64,000 nucleotides of DNA from Neodothiora populina (taxonomy: Eukaryota): positions 310,001 to 374,000 of the forward strand of contig NW_027191410.1 in the NCBI RefSeq assembly GCF_041146345.1, read 5' to 3'. Below the pieces are notes generated by a model, which worked only from the letters and a program-made list of their open reading frames with translations, ran no database searches and was not told the origin of the DNA. Of this stretch, positions 9,833 to 13,046 are shown piece after piece (positions within the stretch are counted from its first letter, which is position 1; each line of letters begins with the position of its first letter). Position numbers and translations under genes: made by a program.

Positions 9833-9860
<28 letters not shown>
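9833..9860. repeat. (TC)14 microsatellite
   Basis: Seen directly, in the divergent SRF1/RPB9 intergenic region. Confidence 0.95.
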
Positions 9861-9866
<6 letters not shown>

Positions 9867-10357
9867 TGAGGTACGTGCGGCGTCTTATGACCTAATTACT
9901 GCGACCCCGTAGCGCAGTTCATAAAGCATGATTTGCAGCGATCGCCCGTTGCCGTTTCGTTGATGGGGATGATGGCAATTTGAGCTTGATTTCCTCGTGC
10001 TTGGCGGGTATTGTCTTATGCAGTAATTAGTGCATTGAGCATCGCAATAATACTGTGATCCGCAGGGTCAGGGAGCTTGGTGAGGCAGCCACATGTCAGG
10101 CATCAGTACCCTGGCTCCAGTGCTGCCTAACGTTTCTACCCCAGTCCGTTCCTGCTTGTCAAGCAATTAATCGTCAGTCATCCTCACCTTACTTCACTTA
10201 TCCTTGTTCGCGTGCGCCACTCTCGACACCACCGCCATCACTGCCTCACCGATACCGAGTTACACTTATCGGCAACTCCTCGTCTGCATTAGCACAGAAT
10301 ACAGGAATCCCACAGGAATCAGTCCATCCAACCAACCCGACTACCATCGCACTCACC

Positions 10358-11136
10358 ATGGCCTCCCCTGCTGGAGACGATGCGACCGATGCGCAGAACG
10401 AAAAGGTCGCATTCAGATTCTGTCACGAATGGTATGCTTTCTCACACTCAAAAGAACCATAACAACGGAACGAACAAAACTGACCGCCCCCTAGCTCCAA
10501 CATGCTCTACCCCCTCGAAGACAAGATGCTGAACCAGCTGATCTTCCGATGCCGCAACTGCAACTGGTCCACCGAAGTCGGTCCCACCTGCATCTACAGA
10601 AACGAGCTCTCGGGAAACGTGTCGGAAACCGCCGGTGTCATCCAGGACGTGGCCTCTGATCCAACGGTTGGTGATCCCATCCCCGACTTTTGCACCCTTT
10701 GCGGCGAAGCCATCCTCTGTCCCACCTGCGGCGAGCCCACAGACGGCGGCCAATATCTTGAGGTTGAAGAGCCGCCTGAAGACGAAGACGAAGACGATGA
10801 CGACCAACAAGTCGGCGCAGAGAGAGAAGAGCGGGAACAGCAGAGACATATGAACCCGTCTTGATTTTGTGTCGCGTTCTGTTTTTCTTAGCAACAGCAC
10901 GCTGACTTGAAACCACGCGACAAATAGCTGCCTCATGTCGACAGGGAATGTCCGAACAAGAGATGTGGTGCGCGGGACGCTGTCTTTTTCCAGAGTCAGC
11001 AACGTAACGCCGAGACGGGAATGGTATGTGCTTGCTACCACGCAGATGCTGAGAAGAGACCTGCTAATACTGCGCGCCAAAGAAACTTTTCTATGTATGC
11101 TGCGAGTGCAACAGAATCTGGACCGAGGCAAATTAA
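10358..11136 (+). CDS. RPB9: RNA polymerase II subunit Rpb9 (131 aa when fully spliced)
   Basis: Exons 10358-10431, 10495-10666, 10928-11023 and 11083-11136 give FRFCHECSNMLYP..CRNC..SDPTLPH..CPNKRC..VFFQSQQR..KLFYVCCEC. Confidence 0.95.
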
Positions 11137-11256
11137 AATGAAACGATGAATTTGATTGATTTAAAATTGGGGGATTATGGAGCAGGGAGTCTTGCAGCAC
11201 TTACAGGCGTTCTTGAGCTTCAACAAAAGCCAACTTCTCGACCGCTGCCCTTCTCT

Positions 11257-12534
11257 CTACTCTGTCTTAGACTGATGGTCCCGACACGGTTTCTCTTCGA
11301 CTGGGGCATCGGGAACCCTATCGCACTTGTCCATCTGGCCAAACGCCCACTTATCCGCCGCCCAATGATCTTCCGCATCAAACTCCTTGAGATAATCCCA
11401 ATCCTTGTCGTCCCCGTCCTGACTCATCTCCCAACCCCCGCGATTCTCTTCCTTCAATCTCGGCACATCTCCCAGGTTTCCGCCTTCGCTGTCCGGACCT
11501 TTGATCGCCTTGATGTCCTTGACCTCAGGATACTTGCCGCGAAAGGGCGTGTCGATGTAGTATTCGGGGCCGAAGTGGGTGTACGTGTGGTTCTGCTTGC
11601 CGCCCTTGGGTTCGAGCGTCTTGTGCGCGAGCTTGTGGGTAACGCGATGGTTCTGTCCCTTGGAGGATATGTATTTCGCAAAGGCCTCGTTGCCTGCTCG
11701 GGGGGAGTTGTACGTGTACTGTATCTCCATCAGTTGTGGCTCAGCGCAGCCTGAAAATCACGAGGAAACGACGATCAAAGCAAGGATAGACCAATGAACA
11801 GAAAAGAAAGCGCAACGTACAAGAGAAACCTCCACATCGCGCCGTCTCAACCACGCAGCCGCGACCGCACCCAGCGTGCCCCCTCTACTGTGCCCCGTGA
11901 CGACAACATGCCCATACATCTTGACGGCAAGATTCAACATGGCCGACATCTGCTCCTTGACGTCGTCCCACACTTTAAGCATCAGCGGGTCGACCTCACA
12001 CCCCTCACACATACCCGGCACAGGCGCCATCTTATCCTCGTCGACTTTCTCTTGGTTAACGGTCACAGAGGCATTATACGGGCGTTCATTGACCCGTCCC
12101 GCAAACGACAGAATCGACAACTTGCGGCCGTGGTCGACGCCCACATATCCGCTGACGGCATAATCGCCGTAGTCCTGGAAATTATAGATCGCGGACGTAT
12201 TACTCGCCGAAACGATGGCACACGGAGCGCCACCACCTTCTTCGCAATACAGCGGTTTGAGCACTTTGTCGGCCGTGTAGTCCTGGTTCGAGGCGCAGTA
12301 GGCCGCGACGGCGTAGTGCGAGAAGACTTCGAGGTTTTTGTAGGTCTTGTGCGTTACTGGTTTCGGTGTCGAGGGATCCGACGAGGAGTCGACGCTTGCT
12401 TGGGTCGTGCCGGAGGTGTCGTGACCGTTGATGGAGATCTTGAATACCGAGCCTGGGGGCAGGGAGCTTGCGGTGGCTGTGGCTAGGAGGCTCAAAAGGG
12501 AGGCTGTGAGATGCATGGCGTAGAGGACGTGCAT
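11257..12534 (-). CDS. Secreted class-3 lipase-like protein (degenerate active site)
   Basis: Signal peptide, AAYC, VVVTGHSRGG and YTYNSPRAGN; intron 11719-11820; TATA-like TATATATA about 110 bp upstream. Confidence 0.8.
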
Positions 12535-13046
12535 CTTAAAGGGGTTGTCAATTTGATTGGCCTTGATGCTTGGTTCTTGATCAGACCTGATGTGCCCAGG
12601 ACGGGGAAGATTTCTTGAGAATGACAGCGAGTATGTGTGGGATTATATATATACGAGAGACGAATCGATCATGTACAATAAGCCATGGGCTGCAATAAGC
12701 GGAGGGTCACAAATTATACTTAGCTGTAGACCCGATATTCGTGCGAGCTTAGCAAAGCCTATTGCACAACAAGCTACAGCCTGGCCAATCAACCTACCGC
12801 TTATTTGTATGACAATGTCCATATGCCGTTGATTTTGGCAATTGGACACATGAGTGCTACTGCTTCTGCCGCCGCCATCGCTATCACCACGACAGACGTT
12901 AGACACAGGTCTTGGCGAGTGTGGCATTAGATAGTGATGAAATCGTTTGCACTTGCGCGCCAGAGGAGAAAAGGGAGGCCAAGTTCGGATCACATGCAAT
13001 AATGGTGGTCCTGTGTGTGGGGTATCTGAGCCGTAAGTGAGACAAA

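Follow-up and report, generated by a model that had tools for sequence, protein, structure and literature searches.

A conserved coding stretch in intron 2 of RPB9 probably gives a second form of the RNA polymerase II subunit Rpb9 in Neodothiora populina and related fungi

Rpb9 is a core subunit of RNA polymerase II (Pol II) which influences fidelity, the selection of start sites, cleavage assisted by TFIIS and the DNA-damage response. Its N-terminal zinc ribbon and its linker attach it to Pol II, and its C-terminal ribbon contributes to TFIIS-stimulated cleavage and to other functions. The stretch of DNA analysed here (the window) is 64,000 nucleotides (nt) long and comes from contig NW_027191410.1 of Neodothiora populina (assembly GCF_041146345.1, positions 310,001 to 374,000 of the forward strand). 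Its plus strand carries an RPB9 gene of four exons, with three introns of 63, 261 and 59 nt (Table 1). The canonical spliced product has 131 amino acids (aa) and matches, residue for residue, the annotated N. populina protein (P0175), which scores above the Pfam cut-offs for PF02150 (31.2 vs. 25.2 bits) and PF01096 (48.1 vs. 21 bits). The canonical product of the locus is a full Rpb9 member, an ordinary Rpb9.

An earlier note, made from the letters of this DNA, had singled out intron 2 as a phase-0 intron of 261 nt with a weak donor (GTTGGT), in which the frame of exon 2 stays open for 65 codons up to a stop that ends at 10864. It had also pointed to a CxxC-x5-CxxC motif followed by an acidic run in this frame, and to a 147-aa product obtained by reading through the intron. 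The sequence and its translation confirm all of this. The comparisons described below indicate that RPB9 probably makes a second Rpb9 form, with a four-cysteine, acidic end (the tail), from this conserved coding stretch of intron 2.

Table 1. RPB9 and the parts of its intron 2, in coordinates of the window.
Feature	Position	Strand	Remarks
RPB9 exon 1	10358-10431	+	start codon and first CxxC of the N-terminal zinc ribbon
RPB9 intron 1	10432-10494	+	63 nt; donor GTATGC, 7.6 bits
RPB9 exon 2	10495-10666	+	remainder of the N-terminal ribbon and linker; last residues ...SDPT
RPB9 intron 2 (canonical mRNA)	10667-10927	+	261 nt, GTTGGT...AAATAG; donor 10667-10672, acceptor AG 10926-10927
Alternative terminal coding segment	10667-10864	+	65 codons in the frame of exon 2; stop TGA 10862-10864
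Conserved tail core, IPDF-CTLC-GEAIL-CPTC-GEPTDGGQYLEV	10679-10765	+	four Cys codons (CxxC-x5-CxxC) span 10691-10729
Acidic run (EEPPEDEDEDDDD)	10766-10804	+	sequence and length vary among relatives
Conserved charged C-terminal motif EREEREQ	10820-10840	+	inside a predicted helix
Non-coding rest of intron 2	10865-10927	+	63 nt; holds the branch site and the acceptor
Branch site CTGAC of intron 2	10902-10906	+	
RPB9 exon 3	10928-11023	+	first half of the TFIIS-type C-terminal zinc ribbon; PF01096 E=8.4e-07
RPB9 intron 3	11024-11082	+	59 nt; donor GTATGT, 8.1 bits
RPB9 exon 4	11083-11136	+	second CxxC of the C-terminal ribbon and stop codon

In translation, the tail of the window runs from CTLC-GEAIL-CPTC through PTDGGQYLEV and the acidic run to EREEREQ, close to its end. 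The GC content is 0.58 in the tail, versus 0.44 in the remainder of the intron after the stop.

Selection on the tail frame was estimated from eight related loci (L005-7, L009-13; 28 pairs), which are relatives of the window and not its closest kin. The earlier note had proposed, as a test, a ratio of nonsynonymous to synonymous substitution rates (dN/dS) below 1 in the intronic frame, and the outcome is clearly positive: dN/dS is 0.08-0.31 in the tail, at dS values of 0.05-0.72, and 0-0.06 in exon 2. Over the same ungapped columns the median dN/dS is 0.14 in the tail frame, versus 2.93 and 2.48 in the two shifted frames. Other pairs of loci give tail values of 0.29-0.53. Between the window and its nearest DNA relatives the synonymous sites are saturated (pS 0.75-0.88, pN 0.21-0.38).

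The distribution of substitutions and indels follows the same frame. At codon positions 1, 2 and 3 the variable sites number 6, 9 and 32 of 77 (chi-square p=2.5e-6); after the stop, 27 of 83 sites vary. When the whole intron is aligned as nucleotides, the 36 pairwise indel runs that fall within the tail open reading frame (ORF) are all multiples of 3, compared to 11 of the 52 that lie past the stop, where runs of 1, 2, 3, 5 and 7 nt are found. To judge from these patterns, the tail frame is under purifying selection and bears the signature of a translated frame which ends at its stop. RNA-level constraint cannot explain dN/dS values that depend on the frame, together with variation at third positions and indels in triplets only.

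A purine-rich block (GGGAGGCAAGAGGAGG) that comes right after the TGA is nearly invariant in the eight loci (L005-L013), whereas the remaining post-stop intron varies. This block could be a splicing or 3'-end signal.

The tail is also found in proteins. A word-index search with its 65 residues returns five proteins, all of them ORF calls without splicing in which Rpb9 exon 2 leads on into this tail. Exon 2 on its own returns 34 proteins, which include further tail-bearing read-through ORFs and canonical models. With phmmer, the 65-aa tail gives 20 matches at E<=0.001 among 1.84 billion representatives. The motif is present in all 20. In 16 of them the tail continues, within the same ORF, directly from an Rpb9 exon 2 that can be recognised and has DPT as its last residues. 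Three others start inside the tail, and in the remaining one (P0047) the upstream part is divergent. None of these 20 matches places the tail in another protein context.

P0047, a 162-aa ORF in which a well-conserved tail stands behind a strongly divergent and very acidic Rpb9-like part that has no DPT junction, may be a pseudogene or a paralogue that has diverged. Another deviation is seen in P0054 and its cluster members P0058-P0060, where DPT is followed by A-S instead of V-G or V-S and no GT is present at the usual donor position. The codons for A-S could give a GC-AG donor (GCAAGT) in this lineage.

A profile search built from 30 tail-bearing sequences gave 934 matches, of which 120 are listed. 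The named carriers from all these searches belong to three classes: Dothideomycetes (Elsinoe, Sphaceloma, Cladosporium, Pseudocercospora, Lecanosticta, Friedmanniomyces, Hortaea, Venturia, Coniosporium and Zalaria), Sordariomycetes (Diaporthe and Cytospora) and Lecanoromycetes (Lobaria, Ikaeria, Pleopsidium and Circinaria). In the Diaporthe and Cytospora models, which have 204-208 aa, DPT is followed by CGCC-GQVIM-CSDC and a long acidic tail, without PF01096. The tail is present, but unremarked, in many public gene models. The earlier note was also right that similar tails occur in RPB9 models of other Pezizomycotina (Diaporthe, Cytospora, Elsinoe, Hortaea, Venturia and Lobaria are among the examples).

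No tail in the window's clade (nine sequences) or in the larger alignments of 30 and 98 tails deviates at any of the four cysteines; in the latter two sets this invariance is partly a matter of selection, since the sequences were gathered by their similarity to the tail. The pattern C..C.{5}C..C is found in 98/98 aligned tails, where the spacer between DPT and the first cysteine varies from 6 to 59 residues and the median net charge on the C-terminal side of the motif is -9. In the window's clade (9/9 sequences) T82, D83, G85 and Y87-V90 (TD.G.YLEV) and E109/E112-Q115 (E..EREQ) are invariant as well, while the acidic part is variable and its length differences are whole codons. Among the findings that would refute its idea, the earlier note had named a frame and cysteines that are not conserved in relatives; both are conserved.

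For DNA, metagenomes were scanned with the pattern DVA[SQ]DPTV[GS], in peptide form, and 31 loci were confirmed. An in-frame CxxC-x5-CxxC follows DPT in 28 of them, a share that overstates the prevalence of the tail because the pattern itself contains the first two tail residues. The spacers between DPT and the first cysteine differ in length at these 28 loci and never hold a stop. The tail stop lies 20-229 nt upstream of the acceptor, in introns of 176-586 nt, and downstream of it the canonical exon 3 (LP..C..C..[AV]..FQSQQR.ETGM) is found at 20 of the 28 loci and partially at one more; the contigs of the remaining seven end before exon 3 could appear. The three loci that have no tail (L023, L028 and L029) have an intron 2 of 53-55 nt. 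Tail loss therefore goes with intron shrinkage where the DNA of tail-less lineages is seen. These lineages are Aureobasidium and a group near Dothideomycetes sp. NU457 (L023, L028, L029; P0012-P0014, P0017, P0020).

The donor of intron 2 is weak. In related RPB9 loci the donors of introns 1 and 3 (54 sites) are mostly GTA[AT]G[TCA], with A at position +3 in 42 cases, and a scoring matrix was built from them. On this scale the donor of intron 2 in the window scores -1.4 bits, versus 7.6 and 8.1 bits for those of introns 1 and 3. The tail-bearing introns have the donors GTGGGT (12 cases), GTTAGT (8), GTTGGT (7, including the window), GTCAGT (1) and GTAGGT (1), which score from -1.4 to 5.5 bits, compared to 7.5-9.5 bits for typical constitutive donors. 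Position +3 is A in only 1 of the 29, though the valine codon allows A at its third base. These observations, made on loci that are not independent, are consistent with a donor that is kept weak where the tail exists. In the tail-less Aureobasidium, DPT is followed by V-C or V-R and, to judge from these protein residues, the donors of intron 2 would be consensus-like.

The predicted form of the tail isoform was studied with P0180 from Zalaria obscura, a complete tail isoform whose shared part is identical to P0108. This protein matches PF02150 with 37.0 bits, and its residues 22-90 align with residues 3-71 of yeast Rpb9 in solved Pol II structures (E=4.6e-23); the alignment stops at the splice point. 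In the tail isoform the first zinc ribbon and the entire linker are thus retained. Neither of the read-through forms P0001 and P0180 matches PF01096, so that the tail isoform is not a full Rpb9 member. In the AlphaFold2 model of P0180 based on 98 sequences, the ribbon has a predicted local confidence (pLDDT) of 81-86, the Cys4 stretch one of 74-81 and a C-terminal helix (residues 131-140) one of 84. An earlier model, made from 30 sequences, has a mean pLDDT of 63.8, which is too weak for the tail, and 73-76 in the block of the C-terminal helix. The top Foldseek matches of the P0180 model are chain I of Pol II entries, that is Rpb9 chains only, and they are obtained through the N-terminal part.

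Searches for relatives of the tail itself gave little. All its sequence matches in the PDB are non-significant, including a rubredoxin (1t9p, E=0.5) and a [2Fe-2S] ferredoxin with an adrenodoxin-type cluster loop, C-x5-C-x2-C (2wlb, E=0.078), and the ESM Atlas returns Rpb9 clusters only, with scores below 0.9. An origin of the tail by duplication of exon 3 was considered, as both begin with a hydrophobic residue and P followed by CxxCG. It was rejected: in a profile-profile comparison of 98 tail-bearing and 10 canonical sequences, hhalign aligns the two only up to DPT and about three residues beyond.

Which products are made from the locus can be approached from gene models and assembled contigs. 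The annotation of P0175 backs the junction between exons 2 and 3. So do P0009 and P0177, two canonical ORFs that run unbroken on Logan contigs of about 1.3 kb and show that canonical splicing occurs in close relatives. In three other Logan ORFs (P0070, P0074 and P0085) exons 1 and 2 are contiguous and followed by the tail, while the genomic relatives L018 and L020 retain intron 1. Such ORFs would suit a cDNA that has lost intron 1 and still contains intron 2, and they are a lead, though intron 1 may be absent in the species concerned. They were not used as cDNA evidence: in the Diaporthales genomic contigs P0033, P0034 and P0067 exons 1 and 2 are likewise contiguous, without intron 1, and the contiguity is therefore no proof of an RNA origin. 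Public annotations of RPB9 are of three kinds, sometimes within one species: canonical, tail-terminated, and with the tail joined to the C-terminal ribbon. Examples of conflict are P0162 and P0166 in Hortaea werneckii and P0083 and P0084 in Friedmanniomyces endolithicus; P0175, in the present species, is canonical. The existence of three kinds of annotation for one gene indicates that the locus confuses gene predictors.

Several points weigh against a second, tail-bearing product of RPB9. The openness of the frame in the window is, on its own, only weakly unusual: shuffled introns stay open for at least 65 codons in 293/5000 cases when mononucleotide composition is kept and in 377/5000 when dinucleotides are preserved (6-7.5%). 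Single-sequence openness being barely beyond chance, the case for coding rests on the comparison with relatives. The tail has no Pfam match above the cut-off, the best being DZR (PF12773) with 16.3 vs. 27.3 bits (E=0.011). The pattern used for the metagenome scan includes tail residues, and donors such as GTATGT or GTACGT lie outside its sample. The loci are not independent, some being identical or nearly so (L001=L003, L004=L017, L024-27, L020~L030), and the eight loci used for dN/dS form one clade. The sets of 30 and 98 tails were assembled by similarity to the tail. The confidence of the AlphaFold2 prediction is moderate (mean pLDDT 69.5 and pTM 0.29 for the 98-sequence model). Lastly, the tail is absent from some Dothideomycetes, namely from the Aureobasidium read-throughs and from L023, L028 and L029, and it is therefore dispensable there.

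The frame +1 of intron 2 is also open, for 61 codons, and across exon 2 and intron 2 it is open from 10542 to 10853 (103 aa, stop to stop). This ORF is taken as a chance one because the shifted frames in relatives show dN/dS above 1.

A different reading of the same coding stretch is that the tail is an internal insert: a donor located downstream would join it to exon 3 and give a long Rpb9 with both ribbons and a Cys4/acidic insert between them. Some gene models have this form, which also counts against a terminal tail: among the 120 of 934 matches listed, five (P0071, P0072, P0084, P0091 and P0110; 234-287 aa) combine the tail with PF01096, and in the Hortaea werneckii models P0165, P0166 and P0172 (235-244 aa) a sequence ending in ...EKRER is joined to the C-terminal ribbon. 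However, the tail-plus-ribbon models differ in their junction, some of them skip the LP... start of exon 3, and another H. werneckii annotation (P0162) terminates at the tail stop. All the in-frame combinations of donors and acceptors were enumerated in the window and in 17 loci, and none of these 18 has a well-scoring alternative donor at a conserved position. In the window, the sole alternative in-frame donor with a positive score (GTCGGC, 0.5 bits, at nt 144 of the tail) would remove the conserved EREEREQ if it were used. In many lineages the tail stop lies a few codons past the conserved C-terminal motif, and indels become non-triplet immediately past it. The lack of a good alternative donor, the conserved stop and the change of indels after the stop favour a terminal tail, and the insert is very unlikely.

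The tail product might also be a free regulatory or decoy protein rather than a Pol II subunit, which could compete for the Rpb9 site or bind non-polymerase partners. Against this, the part that is retained corresponds to residues 3-71 of yeast Rpb9 and would be expected, from the role of ribbon and linker in attachment, to occupy the Rpb9 site. The strong acidity of the tail would suit such a protein, as many decoy or chaperone-like tails are acidic, and yeast Rpb9 fragments are reported to act when overexpressed (PMC9638876). A free protein is given the same slim chance as the insert.

The least probable of the alternatives is that intron 2 is here an ordinary intron, either because the tail codes elsewhere and is unused in this organism or because its conservation reflects RNA-level signals: the open frame is not significant in the window taken alone, relatives within the Dothideales (Aureobasidium) have lost the tail and the public annotation of the gene is the canonical model alone, but the window retains the frame, the position of the stop and all the residues that are invariant among close relatives, and the selection pattern described above is incompatible with RNA-level constraint. 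The search of Rfam agrees, with no match at E<=1 in 10200-11300; an intron-hosted snoRNA, or a similar element, is unsupported for the same reason.

The explanation which accounts best for the whole is that the RPB9 gene has two products, in this fungus and in a large part of the Pezizomycotina, and this is likely to be correct. Sequence comparison makes a strong case that the intronic frame is coding, and a route of production and a function can be proposed from it. Splicing of intron 2 would give the canonical protein, with its N-terminal zinc ribbon, linker and TFIIS-type C-terminal ribbon. On an mRNA that retains intron 2, or that stops inside this intron or downstream of it, the ribosome would read 65 codons beyond exon 2. 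The resulting 147-aa isoform would have, in place of the C-terminal ribbon, the Cys4 motif followed by an acidic spacer and then a short charged helix. The tail would thus be made by intron retention, with the weak 5' splice site of intron 2 as the likely control point. The isoform presumably docks on Pol II via its ribbon and linker, and its tail cysteines may bind metal. A Pol II that contains this isoform would lose the functions of the C-terminal ribbon and gain an acidic appendage near the jaw. The interpretation of the earlier note, which had seen in intron 2 the source of a splicing-controlled variant subunit, is thus partly supported as a whole.

A more ambitious scheme can be imagined, although the odds are clearly against it. 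RPB9 would be a splicing-controlled switch between two forms of Pol II, older than the divergence of Dothideomycetes, Sordariomycetes and Lecanoromycetes and preserved in Pezizomycotina ever since, in which one isoform brings a Cys4 metal module, possibly sensitive to redox or of the Fe-S-sensitive type, and an acidic tail near the jaw and the downstream-DNA channel. The kinetics of splicing and of Pol II elongation would set how far the weak donor is used, and in this way the gene would sense the transcription machinery that it encodes and feed back on it.

Full-text searches of the literature, with subscription journals and supplements outside their scope, brought up neither an Rpb9 isoform nor a conserved intronic frame of this kind, and we know of no natural Rpb9 isoform. 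If the two-product reading is true, a single gene would allow the largest group of ascomycetes to assemble two kinds of Pol II. The conserved second product would keep the part of Rpb9 that attaches to Pol II and swap its C-terminal module. This would also explain why the public RPB9 models disagree, some being canonical, some ending with the tail and others having both tail and ribbon.

In the surroundings of the gene, a (CT)n repeat with about 14 dinucleotide units (9833-9861) lies some 500 nt upstream of the RPB9 start codon. On the other side, a class-3 lipase gene of the minus strand (11257-12642) converges on RPB9; PF01764 is found with E=2.9e-09 on the ORF 11758-12642. Next to the lipase ORF lies another minus-strand ORF, whose end at 11257 is about 120 nt away from the stop of RPB9, and the 3' ends of RPB9 and of the lipase side may therefore overlap. 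An antisense ORF of 250 aa (10448-11200) has no Pfam family and is treated as a chance frame opposite coding DNA.

Among known systems, the closest to the tail isoform is canonical Rpb9/POLR2I (PF02150 and PF01096), which comes from the same gene and shares its N-terminal zinc ribbon and linker. The two differ in that the tail isoform has no TFIIS-type C-terminal ribbon and has instead a Cys4 motif, in which 5 residues separate the two CxxC pairs, followed by an acidic spacer and by a short helix. The Rpb9-C11 chimera (PDB 3qt1), which was assembled into Pol II according to the title of the entry, and the fragment 1-52 of yeast Rpb9 likewise keep the ribbon and linker and have an altered or removed C-terminal module. 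These two are laboratory constructs, whereas the tail variant is natural, intron-encoded and, on the comparative evidence, under purifying selection, and it occurs in three fungal classes. Residues 1-52 of yeast Rpb9 are reported to suffice for its role in autophagy and ATG1 transcription, for which the second zinc domain is dispensable (PMC9638876). By analogy, a natural form of Rpb9 without the C-terminal zinc domain could plausibly act.

The CTLCG and CPTCG elements of the tail resemble the paired metal-binding knuckles of rubredoxins and zinc ribbons, although the matches are weak and non-significant (DZR, E=0.011) and the 5-residue spacing between the cysteine pairs is much shorter than in either of these. 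The tail cysteines may bind a metal, possibly Zn or an Fe-S cluster. As for the way in which the tail would be produced, functional intron retention that gives alternative C-termini is a general phenomenon in fungi. The present case shares with the known ones a weak 5' splice site, a phase-0 intron and an in-frame extension to an intronic stop; it differs from them in that the frame is deeply conserved and belongs to a core subunit of Pol II.

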